Below, piece by piece: positions 6,336 through 27,066 of a DNA stretch of 64,000 nucleotides. The DNA comes from Ignavibacteriota bacterium (lineage in GTDB: Bacteria > Bacteroidota > Ignavibacteria > UBA10030). The notes under the pieces were generated by a model. The model saw only the letters and a list, made by a program, of their open reading frames with translations. It was not told the origin of the DNA and ran no database searches. A program made the translations under genes and the position numbers. The stretch is from NCBI GenBank assembly GCA_022616555.1, contig JAKEEG010000012.1, forward strand, positions 8,263-72,262, written 5' to 3'. Position 1 is the stretch's first letter; each line of letters starts with the position of its first letter.

Positions 6336-7121
6336 TCACGCGTAAAACTCAGGCCTTCTATCATCCAGCAAATGATTACGGGGAGTGACGTTTTTGTTGT
6401 CCGTCACTGTAAGATCGACGTCTTTGACGGCAATCTCAGGCTTATCGGCAGGAGCGCGATGGAGTATTTCTCCACGCGGTGAAGTAATCTGACTTTGCCC
6501 AATGTATGTTAGCGGAGCGACACCGCGGTTTTCGGTGCCAATGCGGTTTGCCGTCGCTGCGAAGACTCGGTTCTCCAGGCAGCGCGTCGGCATACTGTTC
6601 GGGCAATTGGGCAGCACAAGATTTGATGGATGTGCGATGAGTTGCGCGCCTTTCAAGGCGAGCGTACGGGCGCTTTCGGGAAAGTACCAATCGAAGCAGA
6701 CCATGATGCCGACCTTCCCGTGAGGCGTGTCAAAAACCTGAAACGGCTTATCGCCCGGGGCGAAAAATAATTTCTCCCGGTCGAAGAGATGAATTTTTCG
6801 GTAGAGTCCAACAGTGCCGTCGTGGCCGATAATACCCGCTGAGTTGTAGAGTTTACCGTTGCTCTTCTCGGCAAATCCGTACACAACATAACTCCGCTGC
6901 TCGTGCGCAAATTGCTCCAACTCCTTAAAAGTTACTCCTGTACGGAAAGGCTCTGCGAGGTGTTGTACTTCTTCTACGGTGGCAAAGTTATATCCGGTGG
7001 CAAATAGTTCAGGCAGCACATACAAGTCCGCTTGAGTGGACTGCATGAGTTGCAAGGCTTCAGCAATGTTCTTTGACTTTTCTCCGAATGTTGGGTTTGT
7101 CTGAACGACAGCAAGTTTCAT
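6336..7121 (-). CDS. Carbon-nitrogen hydrolase (nitrilase superfamily)
   Basis: Catalytic triad motifs LPELF, YRKIHLF, VCFDWYFPE. Confidence 0.88.
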   Translation of the reverse strand: MKLAVVQTNPTFGEKSKNIAEALQLMQSTQADLYVLPELFATGYNFATVEEVQHLAEPFRTGVTFKELEQFAHEQRSYVVYGFAEKSNGKLYNSAGIIGHDGTVGLYRKIHLFDREKLFFAPGDKPFQVFDTPHGKVGIMVCFDWYFPESARTLALKGAQLIAHPSNLVLPNCPNSMPTRCLENRVFAATANRIGTENRGVAPLTYIGQSQITSPRGEILHRAPADKPEIAVKDVDLTVTDNKNVTPRNHLLDDRRPEFYA

Positions 7122-7124
7122 GCG

Positions 7125-8083
7125 TTACGCTGATCCTGTTTTTCTCAGTGGAACATGAACTGTTGATTCAACATAATCCAGCCATTCGGCGGAGCGCGCG
7201 TGCTTTCCGTGAACGGCGTCTTGAAAAGCATGTTGGATGGAGCGAGTCACAGGCCCCATCGTTCCGTTGCCGATGACACGGAAGTCAATTTCGCGAAGAG
7301 CGATACATTCAGCGGCCGTTCCGCACACGAAAACTTCATCAGCGGCATAGAGCTGGTCGCGCGAGACCTGCGCTTCGACGACCGCGTACCCGACGTCTTC
7401 TGCCAGAGCTATGATTGAGTCACGTGTAATACCTTCTAGCACAGGCGCAAGGTTCGGGGTGTAGATGGCACCGCGTTGTACGATAAACAGATTCTCGCCC
7501 GTGCACTCCGCAACATACCCTTGCGGGTCGAGCATGATGGCTTCGTCGAACCCGAGCCGCACGGACTCCGTTTTGGCGAGGAAGCTATTCGCGTAGTTTC
7601 CCGTTATCTTCGCCTTCGTCATCATCACGTTCGGATGATGACGCGTGAAGGACGAGATGTTTGCCCGCACTCCCCGTTCGAGTGCCTCGGTACCAAGATA
7701 ATTGTTCCACTCCCAAACAGCAATACCGACGCCCGGTTTTCCACCGTCGATGTTAAGATTCCAGCCGCCCCCAGAAAGATATACGAGCGGCCTGATATAG
7801 CACTCGGTATAACCGTTCGCTGCAACAGTACGCTTGGCGGCTTCGACCAATTCTTGGGCTGTATATGGCAGACTGCGAAAACCTAGAATTTTCGCTGAGT
7901 TCACCAGCCGCTCCATGTGCTCGCGGAGGCGGAATATCGCCGGACCGCGCTCGGTCGCATAGCTGCGTATTCCCTCGAATGCCCCGATACCGTAGTGTAG
8001 TGCAGTGCGGGCGTGAGGAAATGCAGTGTCGCGTGTTGATACTCAACCAGTTCGCCGTTCATCCAGACATACTTCGATTGCAT
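7125..8083 (-). pseudogene. ilvE: Branched-chain amino acid aminotransferase, frameshifted by a 5-bp tandem duplication
   Basis: N-terminus MQSKYVWMNGELV...ALHY (ATG 8083, GAGGAG RBS) and C-terminal ORF with CYIRP, AKITGNY, ECTGENLF, LEGITR are out of frame. Removing one TAGTG copy (7993-7997/7998-8002) gives LHYGIGAFEGIRSY and a 317-aa protein. Confidence 0.88.
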
Positions 8084-8104
8084 ACAGCGGGATCTCCTCG
8101 TCTT

Positions 8105-9166
8105 CTATCTAATATGCGAAATAATTTCATCAGTCATGTGTCGCGTCGTGAGTGTGCCGCCCAAATCGGCGGAGCGGGCGCCGCGTGCGATCGCCGTCTC
8201 AACTGCCGACTCAATTGCGCGCGCTTCATTTTCCAACTTAAGCGAATATCTCAGCAGCAACGCGGCACTGAGTATGGCACCAACGGGGTTTGCAATACCC
8301 TTCCCGGCGATGTCGGGCGCGGAGCCGTGAATCGGCTCGTACACGCCGGGTCCGCCGTCGCCTAGCGACGCGGAGGGAAGCATCCCCATGGAGCCGGCAA
8401 GCATCGAAGCCTCGTCGGTGAGTATATCACCAAACATATTTTCAGTAACGAGCACATCAAAGTTTGCCGGACTCGAGATCAATCGCATTGCCGCGGTGTC
8501 CACCAGCATGTGGTCGAGTGCGATGTCCGGATGCTTTTCTTTTACTGTATTAGCTGTTTGCCGCCAGAGGCGGGACGACTCCAGCACGTTAGCTTTATCA
8601 ACCGAGGTCACTTTTTTTCTGCGTCCTCGTGAAAGTTCGAACGCGAGTTTCACGACACGTTCGATCTCGTAATCGTGATACACCAACGTATCTACGGCGC
8701 GGACATAGCCATTTACACGTTCGCGGACACGCGGCTCGCCAAAATACAATCCGCCGGTCAACTCACGAACCACAAGGACATCGACATCCTTGAGTCTCTC
8801 ACTTTTAAGCGGCGAAATTTCAAGCAATGACTGATATGTTTTAACCGGGCGCAGATTTGCATACAGCCCAAGCCCTTTGCGAAGTCCGAGCAAGCCTTGC
8901 TCGGGTCGTACCTTGGCGTTCGGGTCGTCCCACTTAGGTCCTCCTACTGCACCCAGAAGCACTGCATCGGATGATTTGCAGGCATTCAGCGTTTGGTCGG
9001 TCAGTGCACTTCCGGTAGTATCTATCGAGATACCGCCGATAGGATACTCTGAATACTCGAACGCATGTCCGAACTGTTTAGCAATGGCATTGAGTGCGCG
9101 CACCGCCTCTGCAGTCACTTCCGGACCAATACCATCACCGCCCAATACAACGATACGTGCTTTCAT
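8105..9166 (-). CDS. leuB: 3-isopropylmalate dehydrogenase
   Basis: [51 protein letters not shown]. Confidence 0.95.
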
Positions 9167-9180
9167 AAATGTGCGAAGTG

Positions 9181-10056
9181 TTATTTCGACTGAGAACTGA
9201 TAATTGTGCTGAGTTCTTTCGAACGCCGCGTTGCCGTCGCCACCGCATTGATCAGCATTGAGCGCAAGCCGTGTGATTCCAATTCGTGAATCGCGTTAAT
9301 AGCGGCTCCAGCCGGCGTTGTAACTTGATCGCGCAGAATGGCTGGATGTAAACCAGACGCTTTGACAAGTGTCGCTGAACCCAAGACAGTCTGTATCGCC
9401 AATTTAGTTGAGATGTCGCGAGATAACCCCATCTTAACACCGCCATCAATAAGCGCTTCGATGACCATGTAAATATAGGCAGGACCACTACCGCTCAAAC
9501 CTGTAACGGCATCGAGCTGTTCTTCGGCGACAACGACAACTTCGCCGACCGCTTCGAAAATTGAAATCGCAACGCGTTGGTGTTCTTCCGAAACGTTTTT
9601 ACCGAACGCGAGTGCCGTTGCTCCTTCATCGACAGTCGAGGCAATGTTCGGCATGGTGCGGACAACTGGGAGCGCTTTACCGATACGCTCGGTCAGGAAT
9701 TCAATTGTGATACCTGCGGCGATGGAGATAAGCAGATGGCCGTCTCGCAGCGAGGGTTTCATTTGTTCAAGTACGGCAGGCACGGTTTGCGGCTTCACGC
9801 ACAGCAAGATGATTTCCGAAGCTTCCACTGCTTCACGTAGGTTCAGCGTGTGGGCTACCTGCCACTGCGCGCTGAGTTGTTGGAGCTTGTCCAGATGCAC
9901 GCCGCACGCCGTAATCTTTTCACTCGGTGTGAGGCGCGCGTTGATGACGCCCTTCATCAGGGCTGAACCCATGTTTCCCGCCCCAATAATCGCTATCGAG
10001 CGGTTTAAGACGTGATGCTTAGCGGTCTGCGTTGAGTGTTGTTGTGTCGTTTCCAT
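9181..10056 (-). CDS. proC: Pyrroline-5-carboxylate reductase
   Basis: [42 protein letters not shown]. Confidence 0.93.
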
Positions 10057-10072
10057 ATTCGCCTCTCTTCAA

Positions 10073-10660
10073 CTATCTCCTGAGTGTTTCAAATTCGAAA
10101 ATTCGGTCTGTGAACTGCATAAGGTACCCCAATTCATCGACGCCGTTCAGCAAGCATGTTTTCGAGAAATTATCGACTGGAAAGATGATCTGCTTTCCGT
10201 TCGGCAATGCGAGCGATTGCGATGCAAGGTCGATTGTTACTGTCGCCTTCGGATTTTCCTCAAGCAGGACACAAAGCTCATGATGAACAGCAACATCGAC
10301 TGTGACAGAAAGCAGACCGTTCTTCAACGCATTACTACGGAAGATGTCCGCGAACGAGGTGCTGATAACTGCGCGAAAGCCGAAGCCGCGCAATGCCCAG
10401 GGCGCGTGCTCGCGCGAAGACCCGCACCCGAAATTATCTCCTGCTAACAAAACTTCAGCACCGGCGTGCTCCGGTTTATTCAACATAAAATCCGATTTCG
10501 GTGAGCCGTCAGCATTGTACCGCCAGTCGGCGAACAAGTTCTGGCCTAACCCTAGCTTATCCGTCACCTTGAGGAACCGCGCAGGGATAATCTGGTCGGT
10601 GTCCACATCATTGATGAGCAACGGAACAACACGCGATGTATATGGAGGAAAGTGCGACAT
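10073..10660 (-). CDS. leuD: 3-isopropylmalate dehydratase small subunit
   Basis: [37 protein letters not shown]. Confidence 0.95.
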
Positions 10661-10663
10661 TGT

Positions 10664-12076
10664 TTAATCTTTCAAAAGTGTTCGAACATCCGTAATTTTT
10701 CCCGTTACTGCGGTTGCCGCCGCCGTCAACGGCGAAGCGAGGAACGTGCGCCCACCTTTCCCTTGCCGCCCCTCAAAATTCCTGTTGCTGGTGGAAACAG
10801 CATACTGTCCGGGTTCCAACTGGTCGCCATTCATCGCAATGCACATTGAACAGCCTGCCTCACGCCACTCCGCCCCGGCATCTGTGAAAACGCGGTGGAG
10901 ATTTTCAGCCTCTGCCTGACGTTTCACATCCTGCGAGCCGGGCACAACCAACACGCGGACGTTAGGCGCGACTTTTCTATCTTTTAATAATGCAGCAGCT
11001 TGACGCAAATCCGAGATGCGGGAATTCGTGCAACTCCCGATGAACACAACATCAACCGGCTTTCCGAGTAGAGGCTGACCCGGCTGTAAGCCCATGTACT
11101 TCAGTGATTTCTCTAGCGCTAATTTTTGAGATGTATCGCTAACTCGAGCAGGATCCGGTACGCGATCGGAGATCGCCATTCCCATACCGGGGTTTGTCCC
11201 GTACGTAATCATCGGGCTGAGCGAGTTCGCATCGATGGTGATTGTTTTGTCAAACCTCGCTCCCTCATCGGTCTTTAGTGTACGCCAATGTGTAGGACTT
11301 TCCTCCCACGCTTTGCCTTTGGGTGCATATTCCCGATTTGCAATGTACGCGAACGTAACATCGTCCGGTGCAACCATGCCAGCGCGTGCGCCGCCTTCGA
11401 TTGACATGTTACAGATGGTCATGCGCTGCTCCATCGAGAGCGAGCGAATGGCGCTACCACAATACTCAAACACATGCCCCGTACCGCCGCCAACACCAAT
11501 CTTCGCCAGCAGCGCGAGAATGATATCCTTTGCAGAGACACCTTGCGCAAGTGTACCTTCTACGCGGACTTCAAACGTCTTCGGCTTGCGCTGCAACAAA
11601 CACTGTGTCGCAAGCACATGCTCGACTTCGCTTGTCCCAATACCAAACGCGAGTGCGCCGAACGCCCCGTGTGTGGACGTATGGCTATCGCCGCAGACGA
11701 TGGTCATGCCGGGCTGCGTGAAGCCCAACTCCGGACCGATGACGTGCACGATGCCGCGATGAGGGCTGTCCAACCCGTACAACCGAATGCCGAATTCACT
11801 CGCATTGCGTTCCATCTGCTGAATCTGCTTCGCTGCAAGCGGGTCGGCAATAGGCAATACTGGCGTGAGCGTTGGAATGCTATGGTCAACAGTCGCAACG
11901 GTTTTATCGGGACGCCGTACTTTCAGTGCACGTTTGCGAAGGCCATCAAACGCTTGCGGCGACGTCACTTCGTGGACAAGATGCAGGTCGATATACAATA
12001 CAGCAGGAGAATCCGGTTCCTGCGCAACGACGTGCGAATCCCAAATTTTTTCGAATAATGTTTTCGGTTCGTTCAT
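10664..12076 (-). CDS. leuC: 3-isopropylmalate dehydratase large subunit
   Basis: [47 protein letters not shown]. Confidence 0.96.
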
Positions 12077-12085
12077 AGCCCCACT

Positions 12086-13636
12086 TCAGACTGCAACAGA
12101 TGTTTGTTGTTCGGCTTCTTTTTTACGTTTCGATGCGACGAGGAAGCGATTCAGCGCCTCGAGGTATGCTTTCGCGCTCCCCGTGATGATGTCCGTGCTC
12201 ACCGCCCGCCCGTTGTACAGTACGCCGTTGAACTCCGCGCGCACAAATACTTCACCGATAGCGTCTCGGCCTAAACTGACTGATTTGATGGAGTATTCCG
12301 TTAGCTTTCCGGTCACTCCGGTAATTCGCTCAATCGTTTTGTAGGCAGCGTCTACCGGGCCGTCGCCCGTCGCTGAATCGACGAACCGCTGGTCGCCAAG
12401 CCGAAGTTCGAGCGTCGCTGTCGGGCGCACGTTCGTCCCGCTGCTTACCTGAATAGTTTCCAGTTGGTAATAGTCATCCACATCGCCCACCCGGTCTTCG
12501 ATGATCGCGATGAGGTCTTCATCGAAAATTTCCTTCTTCTTATCCGCGACCGTGCAGAATGCTTGGTACGCGCGGTCGAGTTCATCCGCCGGTAATTCAT
12601 ATCCTAATTCCGCGTAACGCTGTTTCAGCGCGTGGCGGCCGGAATGTTTGCCCAGCACTAATGTACTATGTTTGATCCCCACCGACTGCGGCGTCATAAT
12701 CTCGTAGGTAATGGGGCTTTTGAGCATCCCGTCTTGATGAATTCCTGCTTCATGTGCAAACGCATTCGCACCCACGATGGCTTTGTTCCTTTGCACCAAC
12801 ATGCCCGTCAAGCTGCTGAGCAGTTTGCTGGATTTGTAGATTTCGTGCGTGTCGATGTTTGTTTCAATACCGAGCTTTTCACCCCGGGTCTTTATCGCCA
12901 TGACGATTTCTTCGAGTGAAGCGTTGCCGGCGCGTTCACCAATGCCGTTCACTGTGCACTCGATCTGGCGTGCGCCGTTATGGACAGCCGCGAGTGAGTT
13001 CGCTACCGCAAGTCCTAGATCGTTGTGACAGTGCGCGCTGAGGATAACGTTGTCAACTCCGGGAACCCGCCGTCGTATTTCGCTGAACATCGCGCCGTAC
13101 TCCTCGGGCAATGCATACCCTACAGTATCAGGCAGATTGATGACAACCGCGCCGGAGTCAATAGCTGCGGCAACAAGTTCGCACAGGAAATTGATATCGC
13201 TGCGTGAAGCATCTTCGCAGGAGAATTCGACATTGTCGCACAGAGACTTTGCATACTTCACGGCTGTCACCGTATCAGTAAGCACCTGCTCGCGCGTCTT
13301 CTTGAGTTTATGCTTGAGATGGATGTCCGACGTTGCGATGAACGTATGAATGCGCGGGTGTTTGGCATATTGAATCGCTTCCCAGGCACGATCGATATCC
13401 TGCTTCACCGCACGAGCAAGCGCAGCGACGGTAGACTGCTCAACGGTCTTGGCGATGAACTGGACCGCCTCAAAATCCCCTGCGGATGCAATCGGGAAGC
13501 CGGCTTCGATGACGTCGACACGAAGGTGTTCAAGTTGACGCGCCATGCGAACTTTTTCCTCCAGGTTCATACTGCAACCCGGGGACTGCTCGCCATCTCG
13601 CAGCGTCGTATCGAAAATATGGACGCGGTGTTCCAT
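12086..13636 (-). CDS. leuA: 2-isopropylmalate synthase
   Basis: [36 protein letters not shown]-terminal regulatory domain (GDGPVDA). ATG 13636 has an AAGGAG RBS; the ORF-track start 13699 is too far upstream. Confidence 0.95.
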
Positions 13637-13658
13637 AAGGAAAGATCTCCTTGTCGAT

Positions 13659-13904
13659 TTATAAAAACATGTCGTTGATTTGCCGAGTGATTTCCGCACG
13701 GGATTTGATTTCTCCGAACTCCAACTCCAGCTCGGATAAATACCGCGAGCGAATCTCCGCCAGTTTCTTGTACGCCGACTGCACGTTCACGTCGGCAACG
13801 CCTGACATGCGAACCTGCAGGGAATCCATAACAACCTTCTCCTCCTGCACAAAACGCTCGAACACGTCGGCTAGTGTGTGTGTTGTTCTCTGTTTCGCAA
13901 TCAT
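13659..13904 (-). CDS. Hypothetical 81-aa helical protein
   Basis: Fills the cimA-leuA gap. ATG is 4 nt after the cimA stop. No family recognised. Confidence 0.6.
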   Translation of the reverse strand: MIAKQRTTHTLADVFERFVQEEKVVMDSLQVRMSGVADVNVQSAYKKLAEIRSRYLSELELEFGEIKSRAEITRQINDMFL

Positions 13905-13908
13905 GGCA

Positions 13909-15537
13909 TTATCTCACATAGGTAATAGTAATGGGATCATGTGAATTCGATCGCTCTTTGGTGACACCGTCTGCTCCGGTTTTCAGCAGATGGTAATACA
14001 CGCTGTCAACTAATGCTTTCCAGCTTGCCTCGATAATATTTGTTGAAACACCGACGGTATTCCACGCGCCCTGTCCATTTTTTGTCGTGATGAGCACCCT
14101 GACTTTCGCACTTGTTCCATCCTGCCCATCCAACACACGGACTTTATAATCAGCGAGCTGCATATTTTTCAGCGCCGGGTAGAATTTCTCGAGCGCTTTC
14201 CGCAGTGCGTTATCCAACGCCGCGACGGGGCCGTTACCCTCGGCTGCGGTGTGTTCAATTTCATTTCCAACGCGAACTTTGATGAGCGCCTCGGAAACCG
14301 GGTATGCTTCCTTCGCTTCCTTGTGAATAATGACTTTGAACCCCTCGAGTTCAAAAAACTCCTTCCACTCCTGTGCGCGGCGTTTAATCAACAGCTCCAA
14401 TGAACCGTCAGCGTCCTCATACTGGTACCCGTTAAATTCTTTCAGCTTGATATCTTCAACAATCTCCTGCGCGGCTTTTGTATTGCCTTGCAAGTCAATG
14501 CCCAACTCTTGCGCCTTGTACACAACGTTGCTCCTGCCGGAAAGGTCCGACACCAACACGCGCCGCTGATTTCCGACAACCTCGGGTGCGATATGTTCGT
14601 ACGTCTCCGGGGTCTTCATCACTGCGCTCACGTGGACACCACCCTTGTGAGCGAACGCGCTTGCGCCAACATACGCCAAATGTTTGCGCGGCGCGAGGTT
14701 AGCCAGCTCACTCACTGCGAGAGCAAGTCCGGTTAATTTTTTCAACTTTTCTTCTGAAACACAGCTATGACCGAGCTTCAGTTGCAGGTTCGGGATAATC
14801 GCGCAAAGGTTCGCATTCCCACAGCGCTCACCATAGCCGTTGATTGTACCTTGCACGTGTACTGCGCCTTCTTTGACTGCGGCGAGCGTGTTTGCCACAG
14901 CCACCTCGCTATCATTGTGCGTGTGGATGCCAAGAGGAACATTCACTTGTTGCTTCACATCGCGCACGATGGCACTGACTTCATCCGGCATAGTGCCGCC
15001 GTTCGTATCGCAGAGTACGATGACGTCCGCGCCGCCGCGTTCCGCGGCGGCAAGCGTCTGCAACGCATACTCCCGGCTTCCTTTGAAGCCGTCGAAGAAG
15101 TGCTCCGCATCGTATACCACTTCTTTGCCCTTTGACTTGAGATAGGCAACCGATTCCTCAATGACTGCAAGATTCTCCGATTCTGTAATCTGCAATGCGT
15201 GCTTCACGTGCAACAACCACGTCTTACCGAAGATCGTCACCACTGGAGTCTCCGCCTCAATGAGCGCTTGGAGGTTAGGGTCTTCAGCAACATTATTCTT
15301 CGGCCGGCGCGTACTGCCGAACGCGGCAATTTTCGCGTGCTTTAACTTCAGTTCCTTGGCACGGTTGAAAAATTCCAGGTCGCGTGGATTTGAACCGGGC
15401 CAGCCACCCTCGATATAATGAACGCCAAAATCATCCAGCAAACGGGCAACCCGCAGTTTATCCTCGACGGAAAACGAGACGTCCTCGCCTTGCGTCCCGT
15501 CCCGAAGCGTCGTGTCGTAGAGGAAAATATTTTTCAT
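13909..15537 (-). CDS. cimA: Citramalate synthase
   Basis: [52 protein letters not shown]. Confidence 0.9.
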
Positions 15538-15540
15538 CGA

Positions 15541-16599
15541 TTAGTCCTTTTTCCAATTCTCTGGCCGTAATGACCGGACAGCCGCGCCGGCTTTCCACAT
15601 TTCGGATTGTTTCCACTCGTCCAGCTCGCGTTGGAGCTTTTCGCGGTAATCCGGGCTGCTACAGCTATCGAGCACGCGTTTCGTCTCGACTCCTTTTTTC
15701 ACGTTGTCATACAATTTTGTGAAGAGCGGCTTGACTGCTTCTTCGAACTGCTTCGACCAATCCAACGCGCCACGCTGCGCGGTTGTGCTGCAGGAGGCAA
15801 ACATCCAATCCATGCCGTTCTTTCCGATCAGCGGGTACAAACTCTGCGTTGCTTCTTCCACAGTCTCGTTAAAAGCTTCGCTTGGGGAGTGCCCCATCGC
15901 GCGCAGAGTTTCGTACTGCGCTTTCATCACCCCCGCAATAGCTCCCATCAATACGCCCCGTTCGCCCGTGAGGTCGCTGTACACTTCTTTTTCGAATGTC
16001 GTGGGAAACAAGTATCCCGAGCCGACTGCAATGCCCAGTGCAATTGCTCGTTCGCGTGCGCGGCCTGTAGCATCTTGATGGATTGCAAAGCTCGCGTTAA
16101 TGCCGCTGCCAGCGAGATAGTTCGATCGCACGGTACGCCCTGCGCCTTTCGGAGCAACGAGGATCACATCAACGTCAGGAGGCGGAATTATTCCCGTTTG
16201 TTCCTTGAACACCACAGAAAATCCATGAGAAAAGTACAACGCCTGGCCTTTCGTGAGATTTCGCTTGATTGCAGACCATTGGTCTTTCTGACCTGCGTCG
16301 GAGAGCAGATATTGCACCACCGTCGAGCGGCGGGCAACCTCTTCGATGTCGGAGAACAACGTTTTGTCTTCTACCCAGCCGTCCTTCAGCGCATCGTTCC
16401 ATCCCTTCCCGCCTTTGCGCTGGCCAACGATAACCTTGATACCGTTATCGCGCAGGTTGAGGGATTGACCAAATCCCTGCGGACCGTAGCCGATGATGCC
16501 GACAACTTCGTTCTCCAAAACTTTTTGTGCTTTCGAAAGCGGAAATTCTTCACGTGTTACGACTTCTTCTTTCACTCCTCCAAAATCAATAAGAGCCAT
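15541..16599 (-). CDS. ilvC: Ketol-acid reductoisomerase (Bacteroidota/fungal-like type)
   Basis: IGYGPQG, LYFSHGFS, VAPKG, EVYSDLTGERGVLMG, CSTTAQRGALDW. Confidence 0.93.
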   Translation of the reverse strand: MALIDFGGVKEEVVTREEFPLSKAQKVLENEVVGIIGYGPQGFGQSLNLRDNGIKVIVGQRKGGKGWNDALKDGWVEDKTLFSDIEEVARRSTVVQYLLSDAGQKDQWSAIKRNLTKGQALYFSHGFSVVFKEQTGIIPPPDVDVILVAPKGAGRTVRSNYLAGSGINASFAIHQDATGRARERAIALGIAVGSGYLFPTTFEKEVYSDLTGERGVLMGAIAGVMKAQYETLRAMGHSPSEAFNETVEEATQSLYPLIGKNGMDWMFASCSTTAQRGALDWSKQFEEAVKPLFTKLYDNVKKGVETKRVLDSCSSPDYREKLQRELDEWKQSEMWKAGAAVRSLRPENWKKD

Positions 16600-16616
16600 G
16601 GTATTCTCCTTACATA

Positions 16617-19600
16617 CTACAGAATGCTCTGAGGTTGTTGTACAGTTGTTTTTTCTTGTTTGGGGGCTAAGACATCATGTTGCCTCGGCGATACCTTGCG
16701 GAACATCGGCAGGTAATCCTGCCAATTCATTAATATCTCGTGTGCGCGGGTACTGCCAGTCGCTTCGAGATGGCGATAGATCATCGACTGGAGCAACCGT
16801 TGTTCTTCCTGGTCTTCAACAGGTAGTACATCGACAAGCTCGGTGTTACACTTCCATGTGAAATCTCCAAGCAGGTCAAGTACATAGGCGACGCCGCCTG
16901 TCATCCCCGCGCCGAAGTTTCTGCCGACAGTACCAAGCACAACGACGGTCCCTTGCGTCATGTATTCACAGCAGTGGTCGCCGGCGCCTTCGACGACGGC
17001 GAGCGCTCCGCTGTTGCGAACGGCAAGCCGCTCCCCGGCACGCCCAGCAGCAAACAGCGCTCCACCCGTTGCTCCGTAGAGCACCGTATTTCCGACAATC
17101 ACTTCCTGCGCTGCGTGTACCCTGCCCTGCGGTGGAGCGACAATAATTTCCCCGCCAGACATGCCTTTGCCCACATAGTCGTTCGCCTCGCCTGTTAACA
17201 CCATTTTAATGCCATGCACAAGGAATGCTCCGAAGCTCTGCCCTGCGCTTCCCATAAATCGCAATTCAATCGTATGCGACTCCAATCCACGATCGCCGTA
17301 CAAGTACGCGATCTCACCAGAGAGCTTCGTGCCAACAGCGCGATTGGTATTGCGAATTTTATAATTCCTGACGACGGAGACCTTCTCGCGCAATGCATTC
17401 TTCACATCCTGTAGAATCGTATCATCAAGCGGTTTATCGGGCCTGTCGTTGCGGTACCAAATGCGCAGGCGCTGATCGCGCTCATAATCCCTACGCGTAA
17501 GAAGTCCGCTTAAGTCAACAGTATTCGCTTTTACATGGTCACGGATAGTCTTTTGCTTCAGTAAATCCGTACGACCGATAATTTCGTTGAGCGAGCGGAA
17601 GCCAAGCTCCGCCAAAATCTGCCTTACATCTTCCGAGACAGCGTTGAAATACTCGATGAGCATCTCCGGCTTGCCGTCAAAACGCGCGCGCAATTTTTCA
17701 TCCTGTGTCGCAATGCCGACCGGGCATGTATTGAGATGGCATTGTCGCACGTATCGACAACCGAGCGCGATGAGCGCTCCCGTGCCGAAATTAAATTCCT
17801 CCGCACCGAGCAATGCAGCAATGACAATATCCCGACCAGTTTTTAGCCCACCATCGACACGGAGTGTGACGCGCTCTCGCAAGCCGTTCATCACCAACAC
17901 CTGCTGTACCTCAGCCAAGCCCAACTCCCACGGCGCGCCGGCATTTTTGATAGAACTCAGAGGGGATGCACCCGTTCCGCCTTCATGTCCACTTATGAGA
18001 ATCACATCCGCATACGCTTTGGCAACGCCGGCTGCTATCGTCCCAACACCCGCTTCGGAGACAAGCTTCACACAAACACGCGCGCGCGGGTTAGCCTGCT
18101 TCAGGTCGTAAATCAACTGCGCCAAATCCTCGATACTGTAGATATCGTGATGCGGCGGCGGCGAGATTAACGAAATGCCGGGCACCGCTTTGCGCAAGCG
18201 AGCTATGAGCGGGGAAACTTTTCCAGCTGGGATTTGTCCACCCTCGCCCGGTTTCGAGCCTTGCGCCATTTTGATTTCAAGCTCTTTCGCGCTGGCAAGA
18301 TACTCAGCGGTGACGCCAAAGCGCGCAGAAGCGACTTGTTTAATGGCGCTGTTCGCCCAGTCGCCGTTTGGCAACATCTTATATCGACGCGGGTCTTCGC
18401 CGCCCTCGCCGCTGTTGCTCTTGCCGCCGATACGGTTCATGGCAATTGCGATCGTCTCGTGGGTTTCCGGCGAAAGCGCCCCGAGCGACATCGCCGCAGT
18501 GGTAAAGCGCTTCCGGATGTCTTCAACCGGCTCGACCTCCACAAGCGGCACGGGACGATTGATTTTCTTGGTCGTCAGTAAATCTTTTATGCCAAACGGC
18601 GCCTGCTCGCCGATGGCGTTTTTTAAATGATAATATTCTTCGTGGTTGCCTGATTCCCGCAATCGTTGCATAGCTCGCAATGCGTCCGGCGACCAGGCGC
18701 GACGCTCGCCGTTCTTGCGGAAGCGGTACATTCCTTCATCGACAAGCGAGGGCTGCTGCGATGAAAATCCCAGTGCGTGCCGCTCTAAAGCCTCGCGCGC
18801 AATGTCGCGCAGGCTTAATCCTCCAATGCGCGAAGGCGTACCGGTAAAGTGCTGGTCGATGACCTCGCGGGCAATGCCTATTGCCTCAAAAATTTGTGCA
18901 CCGCGATACGAGCCTAACAGCGAGATGCCCATCTTTGAGATGACTTTTAAAATTCCCTGTTCGAGCGCGGAGCGGAAATTTCTCAACGCCTCATCGACTG
19001 TGACATTCTTTAGCTCACCTGCTTCCATCATCGCTCGGATAGTTTCGCATGCGAGGTACGGGTTGACTGCATTCGCGCCGTACCCTACCAGTGTCGCGAT
19101 GTGGTGTACCTCGCGAGGCTCTCCTGTTTCAGCTACGACACTTAACTTGAGTCTCTTGTTTTGCCGTACCAAATGATTGTGAACCGCGCCGACGGCAAGC
19201 AAAATCGGAATAGGGGCTAACTCATCATTCACACCCCGGTCGCTCAGCACGACGAGGAATTTCCCTTCGTCCGCCGCGCGCTCAGCGCCCGTGCAGAGGC
19301 CCTGTAAGGCGTGCTCCAATCCATCTTCGCCTTCACGCACACTGAACAATGCTTTGAGCGTTGTCGATAGAAACGCAGGGTCTTCGAGCGTACGCAAGCG
19401 CTCGAGCTCCTCCTCGAGGAGAATCGGGCTGGCAAGCTCGACCTGTTTTGCGTGCTCAGGGCCCTCACCGAACCAGTTGCGGCGGTAACCCAGTTTGCTC
19501 GTCAGCGACATCACCAACCGCTCGCGTATCGGGTCGATGGGTGGGTTGGTGACTTGTGCAAACTGCTGCCGGAAATATGACGGCAGCAACTTCGGCAGTT

Positions 19601-21107
19601 TCGACAACACTGCGAGCGGCGCATCATCGCCCATAGAGCCGACAGGTTCCTTTGCTGCTTCCGCCATCGGTTTAAGTAACAACGTCAGCTCTTCGGAGCT
19701 GTAGCCGAAGCACAACTGTTCGCGGACAAGCTCTACGCCGCGTGCCGCACGCTCAACACGGGATTTCTCAGCAAGCGGCATGCGATAAATCTGCTTCACC
19801 CACTCGGAATACGGCCGCTGGGCAGCAATTTCGTTTTTGATTTCGAGGTCTTTTAAGAGCACGCCGCGCTCGGTATCGACTGCAATCATTTGTCCGGGGC
19901 CGAGCCTGCCTTTTTCCACAACGGCTGAATCTTCCAGTTTGAGCGCACCGACTTCCGAACCAAGCACAACCAGTCCGTCCGCTGTGACCTTGTAACGCGC
20001 GGGACGCAAGCCGTTGCGGTCAAGCGTGGCTCCGACAATCTTGCCGTCGCTGAACACCAACGCAGCGGGGCCATCCCACGGCTCGCTGAAACACTCGTGG
20101 TAATTGTAGAAATCCTTCACGCGCTGGTTGATGTCCGTGCGTGAGCGCCATGCCTCCGGCACAAGCATCATCATCGAATGCAGAACGTTCCGGCGCGAGA
20201 GCGTAAGAGCTTCAAGCGCATTGTCTAAGTTTGCCGAATCGCTCCCATCCGGCTGGATGAGGGGTTTCAACATCTTAATGTCATCGCCCCAGAACTCGGA
20301 CGCTATCTCAGCTTCGCGAGCTCTTGTCCACACCCTGTTGCCTTGAATCGTGTTAATCTCACCGTTATGCGCCAGCATCCTGAACGGCTGCGCTAGACTC
20401 CACGTCGGGAATGTATTCGTGCTATAGCGTTGGTGATACATTGCAAACGCCGATTCAAAAAGCCGATCTCGCAGGTCTGGATAAAACTTATCCAACGCAG
20501 TGGCAATCATTAGTCCTTTGTAAATGACCGTTCGGCACGAAAACGAACAGACATAAAAATTCTTCACGTCCGTTTTCAGAATATGCTTCTCGATTTCTTT
20601 CCGGCAGAGGTAGAGAATGCATTCAAACTCCGCTTCACTCACGTGCCGCGGTTTGCGGACGAATACTTGCTGCACTTTCGGGGCGCTTAATGCGGCGCTG
20701 TCGCCGATAACCGTCAAATCGACAGGCACGCTCCTCCATCCTAGAAAACCTAACCCGCGGCTCGAGACTACATGTTCCACCAGCGCGCGGCAGAGTGAAT
20801 ATGCATCGTCATCGTTGCCCGGCATAAAGATCATCCCAACGCCTAAGTCCTGCTCCGACTCAAGTTTTTCTGCTAGGCCGGAAACATCGTGCAGGAAAAA
20901 TTTCGTTGGCAGTTGAGTGAGAATACCCGCACCATCCCCCGTTTGCGTATCAGCCGCCACAGCGCCACGGTGAGTCAGGTTGCATACGGACTGGATCGCT
21001 TTCGTCACGATATCGTGGCTTTTCTCGCCGGAAATGCGCGCGACGAAACCCGTTCCACAAGCATCGTGCTCAAACCGTGGGTCGTATAACGGGAATTTTT
21101 CTTGCAT
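16617..21107 (-). CDS. gltB: Glutamate synthase large (alpha) subunit
   Basis: HDACG amidotransferase N-terminus, HQRYSTNT, QGSKPGEGGQ, [3Fe-4S] CRYVRQCHLNTCP, GANDYVGKG-type C-terminal repeats. Confidence 0.96.
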   Translation of the reverse strand: MQEKFPLYDPRFEHDACGTGFVARISGEKSHDIVTKAIQSVCNLTHRGAVAADTQTGDGAGILTQLPTKFFLHDVSGLAEKLESEQDLGVGMIFMPGNDDDAYSLCRALVEHVVSSRGLGFLGWRSVPVDLTVIGDSAALSAPKVQQVFVRKPRHVSEAEFECILYLCRKEIEKHILKTDVKNFYVCSFSCRTVIYKGLMIATALDKFYPDLRDRLFESAFAMYHQRYSTNTFPTWSLAQPFRMLAHNGEINTIQGNRVWTRAREAEIASEFWGDDIKMLKPLIQPDGSDSANLDNALEALTLSRRNVLHSMMMLVPEAWRSRTDINQRVKDFYNYHECFSEPWDGPAALVFSDGKIVGATLDRNGLRPARYKVTADGLVVLGSEVGALKLEDSAVVEKGRLGPGQMIAVDTERGVLLKDLEIKNEIAAQRPYSEWVKQIYRMPLAEKSRVERAARGVELVREQLCFGYSSEELTLLLKPMAEAAKEPVGSMGDDAPLAVLSKLPKLLPSYFRQQFAQVTNPPIDPIRERLVMSLTSKLGYRRNWFGEGPEHAKQVELASPILLEEELERLRTLEDPAFLSTTLKALFSVREGEDGLEHALQGLCTGAERAADEGKFLVVLSDRGVNDELAPIPILLAVGAVHNHLVRQNKRLKLSVVAETGEPREVHHIATLVGYGANAVNPYLACETIRAMMEAGELKNVTVDEALRNFRSALEQGILKVISKMGISLLGSYRGAQIFEAIGIAREVIDQHFTGTPSRIGGLSLRDIAREALERHALGFSSQQPSLVDEGMYRFRKNGERRAWSPDALRAMQRLRESGNHEEYYHLKNAIGEQAPFGIKDLLTTKKINRPVPLVEVEPVEDIRKRFTTAAMSLGALSPETHETIAIAMNRIGGKSNSGEGGEDPRRYKMLPNGDWANSAIKQVASARFGVTAEYLASAKELEIKMAQGSKPGEGGQIPAGKVSPLIARLRKAVPGISLISPPPHHDIYSIEDLAQLIYDLKQANPRARVCVKLVSEAGVGTIAAGVAKAYADVILISGHEGGTGASPLSSIKNAGAPWELGLAEVQQVLVMNGLRERVTLRVDGGLKTGRDIVIAALLGAEEFNFGTGALIALGCRYVRQCHLNTCPVGIATQDEKLRARFDGKPEMLIEYFNAVSEDVRQILAELGFRSLNEIIGRTDLLKQKTIRDHVKANTVDLSGLLTRRDYERDQRLRIWYRNDRPDKPLDDTILQDVKNALREKVSVVRNYKIRNTNRAVGTKLSGEIAYLYGDRGLESHTIELRFMGSAGQSFGAFLVHGIKMVLTGEANDYVGKGMSGGEIIVAPPQGRVHAAQEVIVGNTVLYGATGGALFAAGRAGERLAVRNSGALAVVEGAGDHCCEYMTQGTVVVLGTVGRNFGAGMTGGVAYVLDLLGDFTWKCNTELVDVLPVEDQEEQRLLQSMIYRHLEATGSTRAHEILMNWQDYLPMFRKVSPRQHDVLAPKQEKTTVQQPQSIL

Positions 21108-21112
21108 AGAGG

Positions 21113-21655
21113 CTATACCTCTCCTTGAAATTCTCGTTTCAACGCTACGCGGCCTGTCCGCGCCATTTCTTTAATAACAAACGGCTTGAGCATTTTGATG
21201 AACGCATCAACTTTTTGCTGGCTGCCTGTCGCTTCGAGTGTGAGCGTTTTCGGACTGATGTCGATAACTTTCGCGCGAAAAATCTCCGCTATTTGCATGA
21301 TTTCCGAACGTGTTTCCGGCGTCGATTGCACTTTGACCAACGCGAGATCGCGTTCCACAAAACTCTCGAAGGTCAAATCAACAACTTTAATCGTATCGAT
21401 GAGCTTGTTGAGCTGTTTGATGATCTGTTCGATGATCTGGTCGTCGCCGCGTGTAACGACTGTCATGCGGGACGTGTCGTCTTCCTCCGTCGGTCCAACG
21501 GTCAGGCTGTCGATGTTGTAGCCTTTCGCCGCGAAGAGTCCCGCGATTCTATTGAACGCACCGAATTTATTCTCCACGAGTATGGAGATTGTGTGTTTTT
21601 TCAGTTGCTCTCCATTGCTCGGGCGAGTTGCCGCTGCTGTGATCGGTTGTGTCAT
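21113..21655 (-). CDS. ilvN: Acetolactate synthase small regulatory subunit
   Basis: ACT domain SILVENKFGAFNRIAGLF, QLNKLIDTIKV, EMARTGRVAL. Confidence 0.93.
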   Translation of the reverse strand: MTQPITAAATRPSNGEQLKKHTISILVENKFGAFNRIAGLFAAKGYNIDSLTVGPTEEDDTSRMTVVTRGDDQIIEQIIKQLNKLIDTIKVVDLTFESFVERDLALVKVQSTPETRSEIMQIAEIFRAKVIDISPKTLTLEATGSQQKVDAFIKMLKPFVIKEMARTGRVALKREFQGEV

Positions 21656-21670
21656 AGGGTTATCCTTTGC

Positions 21671-23446
21671 TCATCCTTTACTCAGGGTTTTAACTTCATC
21701 CGTTAACACTTCGCCATCAGCACCTACTTCCACCGATTCGGGAGTATCGAGCATTTCATTGACCGTCTGTCCGGCTGGAATCATTGGATACACATTGTCT
21801 TCTTTCGATACGGCAAATTCGATGAAGAATGGACCACCTTTGTGCTCCATTGCCTTGCGTATTGCCCCCTCTACTTCAGAAGCATTGGTCACACGCATTG
21901 CGGGACATCCGAACGCCTCGGCAAGCTTCACAAAATCCGGATTATAGAGCTCAACGTGTGAGTAACGCCTGCGCCAGAATAATTCCTGCCACTGGCGCAC
22001 CATACCGAGGAAACCGTTATTGATAACGAAAATCTTCATCGGCAGTTTGTGCTCAACGATGGTTGCCATCTCTTGCATGTTCATCTGGAAACCGCCGTCC
22101 CCGCTCACGGATACGACTGGCAAATCCTTGCGCCCAAATGCCGCGCCCATCGCCGCGGGCAACGAGAAACCCATCGTACCTAGCCCGCCGGAGGTAATAT
22201 GGGAACGCGCGTGCACCCACGTGAAGAACTGCGCCGTCCACATCTGATGCTGACCGACATCGGTCACCACAACCGCGTTGCCTTTTGTTACCTCGCCCAA
22301 TTTATGCAACACGTATTGCGCTCTCAACGCGTTGCCTTGTTTGTAGCGCAACGGGTGCTCGGCTTTCCACTGGTCGATGGTTTTCAACCAGTCCGCCGTG
22401 TCCAGTTTGTTCAGCATCTGTACGAGTTTCTGCAACACTTTCTTTACGTCGCCGACAATGGGGACATCCACTTTCACGTTCTTGCTGATGGCTGACGGGT
22501 CTATATCGATGTGCACCTTTTTCGCCTCTGCGGCAAACGCTTCCACCTTGCCCGTTACGCGATCATCAAACCGCGCACCGACAGCGATCAGCATGTCGCA
22601 GTAACTAACCGCGATGTTGGAGTACCACGTGCCGTGCATACCAAGCATGCCGAGCGAAAGCCGGTTCGTTTCCGGGAATGAGCCCAACCCGTGCAGCGTA
22701 GTGGTCACTGGGCATTGGAGTTTTTCCGCCAGCGCCATGAGCTCCTGGGCGGCATTCGATTGAATCACTCCGCCGCCGACGTACAACACAGGGCGTTTTG
22801 CGGCATTGATTAACTCAGCTGCTTTTTTAATTTGCTTCGTGTGGCCTTCGACTGTCGGGTTGTAACTGCGCATGCTGACTTCTTTCGGATACTCGAATGT
22901 CGTCTTCTGCGCCATCACGTCTTTGGGGAGGTCGACCAACACGGGCCCTGGCCTGCCGGTCGACGCGATATAGAATGCCTCCTTGATTGTCTTCGCCAGC
23001 TCACGCACATCGCGTACGAGGTAATTGTGCTTTGTGATTGGCCGCGTGATACCGACAATATCCGCTTCCTGAAACGCGTCGTTGCCGATGAGTTTCAGCG
23101 GCACCTGACCGGAGAACACCACGATAGGAATGGAATCCATATACGCATCGGCGATGCCCGTCACGGTGTTTGTCGCGCCCGGCCCGGAGGTTACCAACAC
23201 GACGCCGGTTTTGCCGGTGGCTTTCGCATAGCCTTCTGCCGCGTGAGTCGCACCTTGTTCGTGCCGCACGAGCACGTGATTAATATCCGACAAATCGACG
23301 AGCGCATCGTACACGCCGATGATAGCCCCGCCGGGGTAGCCGAACACAACCTCGACGCCTTCCTCGATAAGTGAACGCACGAAAATTTCCGAGCCTGTCA
23401 TTATCTTGCCGTAGTGCTGGCTCTGCTGCCCTTTGTGTGGTGACAT
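21671..23446 (-). CDS. ilvB: Acetolactate synthase large catalytic subunit
   Basis: FGYPGGA, RHEQGA, TSGPGATN, RFDDRVTG, DVGQHQMW, GDGGFQMN. Confidence 0.95.
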   Translation of the reverse strand: MSPHKGQQSQHYGKIMTGSEIFVRSLIEEGVEVVFGYPGGAIIGVYDALVDLSDINHVLVRHEQGATHAAEGYAKATGKTGVVLVTSGPGATNTVTGIADAYMDSIPIVVFSGQVPLKLIGNDAFQEADIVGITRPITKHNYLVRDVRELAKTIKEAFYIASTGRPGPVLVDLPKDVMAQKTTFEYPKEVSMRSYNPTVEGHTKQIKKAAELINAAKRPVLYVGGGVIQSNAAQELMALAEKLQCPVTTTLHGLGSFPETNRLSLGMLGMHGTWYSNIAVSYCDMLIAVGARFDDRVTGKVEAFAAEAKKVHIDIDPSAISKNVKVDVPIVGDVKKVLQKLVQMLNKLDTADWLKTIDQWKAEHPLRYKQGNALRAQYVLHKLGEVTKGNAVVVTDVGQHQMWTAQFFTWVHARSHITSGGLGTMGFSLPAAMGAAFGRKDLPVVSVSGDGGFQMNMQEMATIVEHKLPMKIFVINNGFLGMVRQWQELFWRRRYSHVELYNPDFVKLAEAFGCPAMRVTNASEVEGAIRKAMEHKGGPFFIEFAVSKEDNVYPMIPAGQTVNEMLDTPESVEVGADGEVLTDEVKTLSKG

Positions 23447-23569: not shown

Positions 23570-23667
23570 TCATTGCGAAATGGTCCCGCCACGGTAGTGA
23601 CGGGACTGGCGCCCGCGTTGACCAAAGGTTCGCTTTGGCGTTTCGCCGGGTACCGGATTCGCAATGA
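23570..23667. repeat. 98-nt multi-hairpin element with perfect 10-bp terminal inverted repeat
   Basis: TCATTGCGAA / TTCGCAATGA ends. Inner hairpins GTCCCG..CGGGAC (23583-606) and CCAAAG-GTTCG-CTTTGG (23622-38). Confidence 0.6.
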
Positions 23668-23669
23668 TG

Positions 23670-25349
23670 TTATGTTCCGTTCGTATGTAAATCAGTTACA
23701 GCACCAAAACTGCTGCTCGAAACCAGTTTGGCGTACTTCGCCAATACGCCCGCCGTGTACCGTGGTCTCGGCGACTGCCACTTGCGGTGGCGCTCGGCCA
23801 GCTTTTCTTCCGGGACATTGAGCCGCAGCAACAATTTCTCAGCATCAATTGTAATTTCATCGCCTTCTTCCACCAAGGCAATCGTGCCGCCGACGGCCGC
23901 TTCCGGTGCAACGTGACCGACGACCATTCCGTACGTGCCGCCGGAGAATCGTCCGTCACTGATTAACCCTACCGAGTCGCCAAGTCCTGCTCCGATGATA
24001 GCCGAGGTTGGTGCGAGCATTTCGCGCATGCCGGGGCCGCCTTTCGGACCTTCGTAACGAATCACAATCACATCCCCCGCTTTGATTTTGCCGGCGAGAA
24101 TCGCTTGCAAAGATGCCTCTTCCGAATCGAACACGCGGGCGGGACCCGTCATGACCGGCTTTTTCACGCCTGTAATTTTCGCCACCGCACCTTCTGATGC
24201 GAGGTTCCCTCGTAGTATCGCCAAGTGACCTTTGGGATAGAGCGGTTTGTTCCATGGGTGAATAACATCCTGACCTGTGCGCGGTTGGTCTGGTACATTT
24301 GATAACAATTCTGAGATTGTTTGTCCGGTTATAGTCCTTGCGTCACCGTGCAGAGCGCCATTGTTCAGCAGGATTTTCATTACCTGAGGGACGCCGCCTG
24401 CATTGTGAAAATCAGTCGTGACATATTTGCCCGATGGCTTAAGGTCGCACAATACCGGTACGCGCTTACGTACGGCTTCAAAGTCATCCAGAGTCAGCGG
24501 CACATTTGCTGCGTGTGCAATGGCAAGAAGGTGTAGAACGGCGTTGGTGGAGCCGCCCACCGCCATTAAGACTGCGATGGCGTTTTCAAAAGCTTTTCGT
24601 GTGAGAATTTGTGTGGGAAGAAGTTGATTGCGGATTGCGTTGGCGAGGACTTGAGCGGACTGGGCAGTGCTCTGTGCTTTCTCTTCGTCCTCCGCCGCCA
24701 TGGTCGAAGAGTGCATCACACTCATACCCATCGCCTCAAATAACGACGACATGGTGTTTGCCGTGTACATACCGCCGCACGAGCCAGCACCGGGGCAGGA
24801 ATGCCGCTCCACTTCCAACAGCTCGGCGTCACTCATTTTCTTGGCGCTGTGTTGGCCGACTGCTTCGAACGCGCTCAACACGGTCAAATCCTTGCCATTG
24901 TAATGTCCGGGCTTGATAGTGCCGCCGTACACAAACACGGCTGGGATATTCATTCGCGCGATAGCGATCATCGCACCGGGCATATTCTTATCGCACCCGC
25001 CGATGGCAAGCACGCCGTCGAGGCTCTGTCCGTTGCACACAGTTTCGATGGAATCGGCGATAACCTCGCGCGAGACGAGGGAGTACTTCATGCCTTCCGT
25101 CCCCATCGAGATGCCATCGCTCACGGTGATGGTGCCGAAGACCTGCGGCATCACTCCAGCTTGGCGCAACGCTTGCTCCGCCCGCTCGGCAAGTGGTTGA
25201 ATGCCCATGTTGCAGGGGGTGATCGTACTATGGCTATTGGCAATACCGACGATGGGTTTAGCAAAATCGTTATCGCCGAACCCCACCGCGCGCAGCATAG
25301 CCCGGTTGGGAGTGCGTTCTACGCCTTGTTTGATCGTATCGCTTCGCAT
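23670..25349 (-). CDS. ilvD: Dihydroxy-acid dehydratase
   Basis: [56 protein letters not shown]. Confidence 0.96.
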
Positions 25350-25370
25350 CGTTCGCCTTTCGAAAACGGC

Positions 25371-25459
25371 AAAAAAATCCTACTCCGCCTGAGGCGAACT
25401 TTGCTTGACCGGTTATACTTGTTGGGGTATGTTGGGTGTGTGCTTAGTTAGCCTCAGGC
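25371..25459 (-). promoter_or_regulatory. Candidate ribosome-dependent attenuator of the ilv/leu operon
   Basis: On the - strand GCCTGAGGC (25459-51) is the exact complement of GCCTCAGGC (25395-87). The latter otherwise forms hairpin TTCGCC-TCA-GGCGGA, 6 nt before a T7 tract (25377-71). Confidence 0.65.
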
Positions 25460-25464
25460 TCTCG

Positions 25465-25608
25465 TTATCCAATAATAAGGAGGCCGAGAATAAGGAGGTT
25501 AACTAAAATAACGAGGATGCTAATCGGGAGGAGAACAATAATTGGCCGGATAACGCTCAGGAGTGCGTTTGCCAAGAAGGTAAAACCGATATTGTTGCTC
25601 GTTCCCAT
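25465..25608 (-). CDS. Ile/Leu/Val-rich leader peptide (47 aa), absent from the ORF track
   Basis: MGTSNNIGFTFLANALLSVIRPIIVLLPISILVILVNLLILGLLIIG*. 26 of 47 codons are I/L/V. Lies directly upstream of ilvD. Confidence 0.85.
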   Translation of the reverse strand: MGTSNNIGFTFLANALLSVIRPIIVLLPISILVILVNLLILGLLIIG

Positions 25609-25627
25609 TTGAGTTACTGTAATACTT

Positions 25628-25655
25628 AATATAATACTATTTCAGGACTTGTCAA
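25628..25655 (-). promoter_or_regulatory. Candidate sigma70 promoter for leader/ilv operon
   Basis: TTGACA (25655-50)-N16-TATATT (25633-28). The same -10 hexamer precedes the tRNA gene. Confidence 0.5.
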
Positions 25656-25824
25656 GTACAATTTTTTCGTTGTAACCAGTAGAATCGTGGAATGATAAAA
25701 GCATACTTTAATAAAGTAAAGAGCAAAGCTTTGGCTTAGTAAAGATATTTCCATTTTGGGCGCAAAAAACTTCAAAATCTCCTATTTTTTCAATATAACT
25801 AACGGGAGAAGGGAAAAAGCGACA

Positions 25825-27028: not shown

Positions 27029-27066
27029 GCGTTTTGTGCTCCTCGCACAGCGTCGCAACAAACAAA

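Follow-up and report, generated by a model that had tools for sequence, protein, structure and literature searches.

How does a short open reading frame (ORF) crowded with isoleucine, leucine and valine (ILV) codons, placed between a strong promoter match and the ilvD gene of an ilv-leu operon, act on the genes behind it? The locus lies in a metagenome-assembled, uncultured Ignavibacteriota genome, of which a stretch of 64,000 nt (the window) was analysed; every attenuator feature is on its minus strand. The original prediction was of a leader-peptide attenuator, in which a ribosome at the leader stop codon masks the first of two complementary 9-nt arms, and a ribosome stalled upstream frees it to disrupt a terminator built on the second. 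We conclude that the locus is probably an ILV-sensing, ribosome-mediated attenuator that in the window acts mainly on translation, by sequestering the ilvD ribosome-binding site.

The leader ORF starts 19 nt past the -10 box, leaving a short 5′ UTR, and the 11/12 promoter match is unique on the minus strand between 6000 and 25800 in a promoter scan. No Shine-Dalgarno sequence precedes the 47-codon ORF; efficient translation of the leader, as one without a Shine-Dalgarno sequence, is assumed in the model developed below. The predicted ILV bias of the peptide is borne out by the codon count, since 24 of the final 32 codons specify Ile, Leu or Val (binomial P 3.6e-10 against an I/L/V fraction of 0.223 in the window's proteins), as do 17 of the final 22 (I6 L9 V2). 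Real proteins encoded in the window reach at most 16 I/L/V in any 32 consecutive residues, and of its 1155 stop-to-stop frames with 32 aa or more the leader alone reaches 24/32 or higher. A public gene-call collection carries the 47-aa ORF as a gene without a Pfam match, and a protein search with the peptide returned only the window's own sequence; because it matched itself alone, we do not regard it as belonging to a conserved protein family. Rfam (4227 families) gave no match within 25345-25660 even at E <= 10.

The leader stop codon TAA (25467-25465, minus strand) is followed by a 5-nt spacer, CGAGA, and then by the DNA sequence GCCTGAGGC at 25459-25451, whose exact reverse complement, GCCTCAGGC, stands at 25395-25387. 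The 9-nt complement starting 5 nt after the stop and the run of seven U residues (U7) downstream are thus found in the sequence just as had been described. The start context of the leader, AUGGGAA (or GUGGGAA), is conserved in most members of the family (25606-25600, minus strand, in the window), and in the minimum-energy fold the leader-start GGGA is paired with UCCC deeper in the ORF, an arrangement that could tune leader translation.

Features of the ilvD leader region and the operon that follows, in window coordinates.
Feature	Coordinates	Strand	Remarks
Promoter	25628..25655	(-)	TTGACA (25655-25650), 16-nt spacer, TATATT (25633-25628); 11/12 consensus match
Leader ORF, 47 codons and stop	25465..25608	(-)	Peptide MGTSNNIGFTFLANALLSVIRPIIVLLPISILVILVNLLILGLLIIG
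Segment 1, UUAGUUA-A-CCUC	25495..25506	(-)	Codons 35-38 (L V N L); pairs with segment 2
Hairpin P2 (UCUCG:CGAGA, UCC:GGA)	25460..25489	(-)	Final ORF codons, stop, 5-nt spacer; weakly supported
Segment 2	25442..25459	(-)	First arm GCCUGAGGC (25459-25451) and UAACU..GC; conserved pairing
Apical C/A-rich, G-poor region of the 2:3 hairpin	25405..25441	(-)	Length and sequence vary, except ACC:GGU
Segment 3	25387..25404	(-)	GCAAAGUUC and second arm GCCUCAGGC (25395-25387); pairs with segment 2 or segment 4
Purine tract and U7	25371..25386	(-)	GGAGUAGGA and U7 (25377-25371); weak terminator-like hairpin with second arm
Segment 4, ilvD translation-initiation region	25346..25358	(-)	AGGCGAAC-GA-UGC; Shine-Dalgarno AAGG, AUG 25349-25347
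ilvD, first operon gene	23670..25349	(-)	NF002068, 854 bits
ilvB, ilvN, gltB, ilvC, cimA, leuA, leuC, leuD, proC, leuB, ilvE (frameshifted), nitrilase-family gene	6336..23446	(-)	Co-directional, 3′ of ilvD

Comparison with relatives shows that the leader is not peculiar to this genome. Sixteen distinct homologous leaders were found in metagenomes and MAGs labelled Bacteroidota or Ignavibacteriales, gathered through look-ups of the closest ilvD proteins and one metagenome pattern scan anchored mostly outside the arms; that scan also gave two false positives, inside coding region. All 16 lie directly 5′ of ilvD or of a short ORF coupled to ilvD (relatives L092 and L096). A scan of a genome collection for ilvD yielded few relatives because ilvD is too conserved: it returned 80 loci, mostly from cyanobacteria and proteobacteria, with the element in L014 only. 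The family covariance model (R1) finds exactly one copy in the window, at 109 bits, and picks out L014 only when run on 82 further loci, 81 being ilvD loci of other phyla (the fragment L044 was untested). The leader family is lineage-restricted and has no Rfam match.

In members complete at the 5′ end the leader ORF is 44-59 codons long; the N-terminal half diverges while the frame is kept, and the C-terminal run takes forms such as ...ILvLVNLLvLGLIIIs, with I/L/V at 14-17 of the final 22 codons in 15 homologues. The gap between stop codon and first arm is 4-7 nt in the family and 5 nt in the window, and a TTGACA-N16/17-TAtATT promoter is kept 17-28 nt 5′ of the leader start in 14/14 homologues complete at the 5′ end. 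Conservation of the ORF, of its ILV-rich C-terminus and of the short stop-to-arm gap, scored in the homologues complete at the 5′ end (L087 is cut), supports the leader-peptide attenuator of the original prediction. The check proposed with it, an alignment of the ilvD upstream regions of relatives, likewise finds the leader frame conserved and the 9-bp stem maintained by compensatory changes.

The helix between the two arms, 2:3, is the most securely conserved element of the structure. The arms are 55 nt apart, separated by a C/A-rich stretch, and their pairing is the RNAalifold consensus helix, extended by AACy:rGUU and GC:GC, with three covarying pairs; at one position of the 9-bp pairing A:U, U:A and G:C are all found. 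A pair count scores 97% of the 2:3 cells as paired, the whole structure with slid 3′ partners giving 26-41%. Permuted arms paired as well as cognate arms in 0/20000 trials, a shuffle statistic that overstates independence, as family members are related by descent. The conserved 'loop' sequences were also considered as a ligand or protein site, and this was rejected, the 2:3 extensions and the complementarity between segments 3 and 4 accounting for them.

A further pairing partner of the first arm, missed by the original prediction, lies inside the ORF itself. The conserved GUUAACCUC in the ORF can pair with the first arm, matching the arm's 3′ half and extension, and this 1:2 pairing accounts for the conservation of the sequence at the nucleotide level; in the OFF-state fold, segment 1 is paired with GAGG-C-UAACUAA of segment 2. 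Across the family 85.8% of cells are paired in 1:2, compared with 23-49% in slid controls, and there are two compensatory pairs, a thin covariation. As in classical attenuators, the helices 1:2, 2:3 and 3:4 overlap and are mutually exclusive, the stop codon is placed close to the first arm and segment 1 falls inside the ILV run. The two global folds are close to equal in energy: the window folds to -56.9 kcal/mol in the ON state and -53.6 kcal/mol in the OFF state, the difference ranging from -10 to +5 across the family. The minimum-energy fold of the free RNA in the window is thus ON, by 3.3 kcal/mol, and because of this preference the OFF state would depend on ribosome traffic or kinetics.

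The region between segments 1 and 2 can itself form a hairpin, P2, the two helices of which are 85.7% and 76.5% paired in fixed-column counts, with three covarying pairs. By eye P2 seemed to covary strongly, but cognate-versus-permuted duplex tests of it were non-significant or marginal (P = 0.14, 0.04, 0.11), a poor result that we attribute to slippage of the helix register between members. P2 might conceivably serve as a pause or stacking hairpin, a weakly supported role. A closing helix CUCC:GGAG with a three-way junction was also considered; it is 4 bp long and without covariation, and was rejected in favour of 1:2 plus 3:4.

Identification of the alternative partner of the second arm is the point at which our reading departs from the original prediction, which had named a terminator. 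The complement of the second-arm strand is the Shine-Dalgarno sequence and start of ilvD (25358-25346), beyond the coordinates covered by that prediction. The initiation region of ilvD is matched by the strand GCAAAGUUCGCCUC (25404-25391), within which GUUCGCCU (25399-25392) forms 8 contiguous Watson-Crick pairs with AGGCGAAC (25358-25351); a GCA:UGC pairing spans the start codon. For this duplex the computed energy is -19.0 kcal/mol, against -9.6 +/- 2.6 kcal/mol for the shuffled region (z = -3.7). AAGGAG-type Shine-Dalgarno sequences are used by the window's genes. The start of ilvD at 25349 (559 aa) is backed by homology; the public ilvD gene call (L081) uses an internal Met start 17 codons late (542 aa; 25299-25349 of the window, minus strand), and with this late start the ribosome-binding site complementary to segment 3 goes unseen.

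The 3:4 pairing is strong in 10/13 non-redundant members (permutation test P ~0.02), and it is maintained through sequence change. Compensatory variants are seen in L087 (CACCU:AGGUG), L014 (GGUUCUCCUCU:AGAGGAAGAACC), L091 (GGUUCGCCUCU:AGAGGCGAGCC, -22.4 kcal/mol) and L089 (AAGGUUC:GAACCUU), and L084 has GCAAGGU:ACUUUGC over a UUG start. In an independent alignment 3:4 is the sole consensus helix returned by RNAalifold, with GC4/GU4/UA2/AU1 at the variable position. Both the Shine-Dalgarno sequence and the start codon of ilvD would therefore lie in a predicted helix, as in translational attenuators of the ermC type and the mycobacterial Cys attenuators. It had been allowed as a caveat that control could be translational, and the 3:4 pairing with the ilvD initiation region makes this the better reading. 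The same logic appears to extend to L092 and L096, in which a 44- or 65-aa ORF lies between attenuator and ilvD (about +32 to +167 after the second arm in L092, +35 to +233 in L096) and its stop overlaps the ilvD start (ATGA). There the partner of segment 3 is the initiation region of the small ORF, the pairing being strong in L096 and weak in L092, and the ATGA overlap suggests translational coupling of the small ORF to ilvD.

The consequences of ribosome position were modelled by constraint folding, an equilibrium model, in which a ribosome whose A site is at the leader stop was taken to extend ~10 nt past that stop, over the 5′ half of segment 2. With the ribosome at the stop, 2:3 is abolished or truncated and 3:4 is formed, in the window and in most relatives; with the ribosome 6 or 12 codons upstream, 2:3 stays and the ilvD initiation region is unpaired with segment 3 in most members. 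Accessibility of the Shine-Dalgarno region is lower in the OFF state in 11/13 members. The masking originally proposed stands in silico as far as the first arm is concerned, whose pairing is abolished by a ribosome at the stop and kept when the ribosome stalls upstream, but the alternative partner of the second arm is not a convincing terminator in the window.

We propose that the leader RNA switches between two pairing states, 1:2 plus 3:4 (OFF) and 2:3 (ON). When charged Ile-, Leu- and Val-tRNAs are ample, ribosomes would translate as far as the leader stop, covering segment 2 or unwinding it; when no ribosome is present, 1:2 could form. With segment 2 either masked or held in 1:2, segment 3 would pair with the ilvD initiation region and ilvD would go untranslated, and this would probably lower expression of the downstream genes by polarity. 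When these tRNAs are scarce, a stall in the run over segment 1 would allow 2:3 to form and leave the ilvD ribosome-binding site free. A caveat to the model is that segment 1 would stay free if the ribosome stalled early in the ORF. The sequence features, their conservation, the covariation of 2:3 and 3:4 and the in-silico switch are observed; the amino-acid response, the stall positions, the kinetics, the operon polarity and any extra termination at U7 are the inferred parts of the model. The model predicts that breaking 3:4, for example by changing GUUCGCCU to GAAGGCCU, would make expression constitutively ON.

The main rival to ribosome-binding-site sequestration is classical transcription attenuation, with the second arm forming a terminator before U7 whenever the first arm is masked and the transcript ending at ~25371. 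Continuing 3′ from the second arm are GGAGTAGGA and then T7 at 25377-25371, with GAAAGGCGAACG between U7 and the ilvD ATG (25349). The imperfect terminator that the original prediction had flagged is present as described: the hairpin before U7, UUCGCC-UCA-GGCGGA, has a stem of 6 bp including one G:U and a 6-nt gap before U7, and a consensus terminator scan of the window called none there, so that the terminator is not upheld as the partner of the second arm. The family speaks partly for termination, in that a U-run follows segment 3 by 9-17 nt in 12/15 members and fair hairpins stand beside the U-runs of L091, L092 and L014. L095 even has a canonical terminator, GCCUCU-GGCGA-AGAGGC followed by U8, with the second 9-mer as its 5′ arm and with no 3:4 pairing to the ribosome-binding site; an intrinsic terminator in this position is found in L095 only, and not in the window. 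L085 and L101, however, keep the rest of the element and have no U-run. In many members the purine tract and a U/C-rich tract form a small hairpin that separates segments 3 and 4, so that the U-tract is explicable as the 3′ arm of that hairpin, and the U-run is enclosed by the 3:4 helix instead of following a helix. We therefore regard termination as an unlikely main output for the window and sequestration of the ribosome-binding site as the better supported one, to which weak termination or Rho may contribute.

Two other explanations fare less well than termination. In a Rho-dependent attenuator the C/A-rich, G-poor stretch between the arms would load Rho when 2:3 is unformed or ilvD untranslated. 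The stretch 25441-25405 is indeed C-rich and G-poor, as it is in all relatives, and an untranslated gene, as ilvD would be here, in any case invites Rho polarity; yet it is only ~40 nt long and partly paired (ACC:GGU, AUAC:GUAU), and its conserved parts are accounted for by the 2:3 and 3:4 pairings, making this quite improbable as the mechanism. Alternatively, the ORF might encode a small hydrophobic membrane peptide, with the helices forming a separate cis-element, unrelated to it, for a protein or ligand to bind. The final 22 residues would pass as a transmembrane helix and the LVNLL motif is conserved, but the hydrophobic run is almost entirely I/L/V: pooled over the final 22 codons of 15 leaders there are L128, I75 and V33 against F7, A8, M0 and W0, a near-pure run that favours codon selection over a membrane helix. 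Moreover, the conserved LVN codons are those of segment 1, the stop codon keeps a fixed distance of 4-7 nt to the first arm, the protein search matched nothing beyond the window itself and Rfam offers no match for a cis-element, and we find a membrane peptide hardly credible.

What sequestration of the ilvD ribosome-binding site would govern is set by the genes behind it. The co-directional run comprises 13 genes, from ilvD down to 6336, and no second strong promoter match occurs on the operon strand (6000-25800). Control of the whole ~19-kb operon by the attenuator is plausible and is what we infer from these 13 co-directional genes and one strong promoter. Within or appended to the ilv-leu operon, all on the minus strand, are gltB (16617-21107; glutamate synthase large subunit, 1496 aa), proC (9181-10056) and a nitrilase-family gene (6336-7121), which would share the operon's ILV-dependent control; if the model is true, expression of gltB and proC is tied to ILV supply.

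Several other features of the neighbourhood were recorded. The ilvE gene appears to be split by a frameshift (7917-8104 and 7125-7916, minus strand), its N-terminus MQSKYVWMNGELVEYQHATLHFLTPALHY and its continuation ALHYGIGAFEGIRSY... lying in different frames, and the match of the called ORF to the ilvE profile begins only at position 49/58; the split is either an assembly error or a pseudogene. The gap between ilvD and ilvB is 223 nt (23447-23669, minus strand; 60-560 nt in relatives) and contains the GC-rich hairpins GUCCCGUCAC-UACC-GUGGCGGGAC and CUCUCUCC...AGAGGAGAG, together with a DsrA-like Rfam match at chance level (E = 1.7); it is a possible second control point. On the 5′ side of the leader, 25988-34655 (minus strand) holds a polysaccharide-utilisation-like cluster with genes for a LacI-family regulator, a glycoside hydrolase, a pectate-lyase-like protein, a T9SS sorting-domain protein and a TonB-dependent receptor (TonB/SusC-like). 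The LacI gene adjoins the leader in L083 too. The T9SS-sorting and TonB/SusC-like genes and the names of the closest ilvD proteins (Bacteroidota, Ignavibacteriales) agree in assigning the DNA to Ignavibacteria-like Bacteroidota.

Taken across its members, the element could represent a previously undescribed, lineage-restricted family of ILV attenuators in Ignavibacteria-like Bacteroidota, in which one sensor is joined to interchangeable expression platforms; we put this forward tentatively, as a serious possibility. In that reading most platforms, that of the window among them, would be ribosome-binding-site sequestration, two would act on the ribosome-binding site of a small ORF and one would be an intrinsic terminator. 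If true, this would amount to riboswitch-style platform swapping in an attenuator that senses through the ribosome, and the range of output types would make the family a useful case for the evolution of attenuator output. The literature searched yielded no description of such attenuators in Ignavibacteria, and candidate leader sORFs in Bacteroides are mentioned there only in passing; a comparative study of 2004 reportedly predicted some attenuators in Bacteroidetes/Chlorobi. With the element comes an RNA family absent from the curated libraries, along with a specific regulatory model, open to testing, for an operon of 13 amino-acid genes in a mostly uncultured lineage that has received little study. 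The usual approach of looking for a leader ORF followed by a terminator can, as this case indicates, misjudge attenuators that work by sequestering a ribosome-binding site. No new regulatory principle is involved; the switch is of a known kind, here in an unstudied lineage.

The closest parallels in architecture are the ilvGMEDA (ilvL) and ilvBN attenuators of E. coli and Salmonella, which have a leader ORF of ILV codons and mutually exclusive 1:2, 2:3 and 3:4 pairings. As in those systems, a short ORF of mixed Ile, Leu and Val codons precedes a branched-chain operon, exclusive pairings are read by ribosome position, and codons for the end products are enriched between the promoter and the first ilv/leu gene, an arrangement shared with trp. 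The window element differs in having no sequence or Rfam homology to them, and in its longer leader (47 codons) with ~20 regulatory codons and no Shine-Dalgarno sequence. It also departs from the classical transcription attenuator in one defining trait, since its 3:4 helix is not an intrinsic terminator. The enterobacterial ilv leader attenuators are summarised in PMC5794164, which also describes a Leu-rich attenuator peptide in the ilvD leader of Staphylococcus aureus, and an attenuator is likewise reported for the ilvD leader of Listeria (PMC5864092). These two resemble the window in the position of a leader with Ile/Leu codons directly 5′ of an ilvD that heads an ilv-leu operon, and in a proposed ribosome stall that switches alternative folds. 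Their output, in contrast, is a terminator hairpin with a poly-U tail, accompanied by CodY, and they belong to another lineage and are unrelated in sequence.

In its output the window element comes nearer to translational attenuators. The four-segment logic of ermC is that a ribosome stalled on the leader frees a sequestered downstream ribosome-binding site. Amino-acid sensing with a translational output is found in the mycobacterial attenuators with leaderless poly-Cys uORFs (bioRxiv 10.1101/834739). Both share with our model the step from leader stall to release of a ribosome-binding site; the signal there is a drug-bound ribosome or Cys, whereas here it would be the supply of Ile-, Leu- and Val-tRNA, and among relatives of the window element a terminator can replace the pairing with the ribosome-binding site. 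Leader ORFs with runs of Leu or ILV codons, like that of the window, are also present in the actinobacterial LEU element, whose Leu-codon run pairs with the leuA Shine-Dalgarno sequence (PMC1262725), and in the Corynebacterium ilvBNC leader, with its ILV/Leu codon run (PMC11857589). The codon run of the LEU element is thus the direct partner of a Shine-Dalgarno sequence; in the window this part would fall to a separate element, segment 3, and the codon run, as segment 1, would pair instead with the anti-sequestor.
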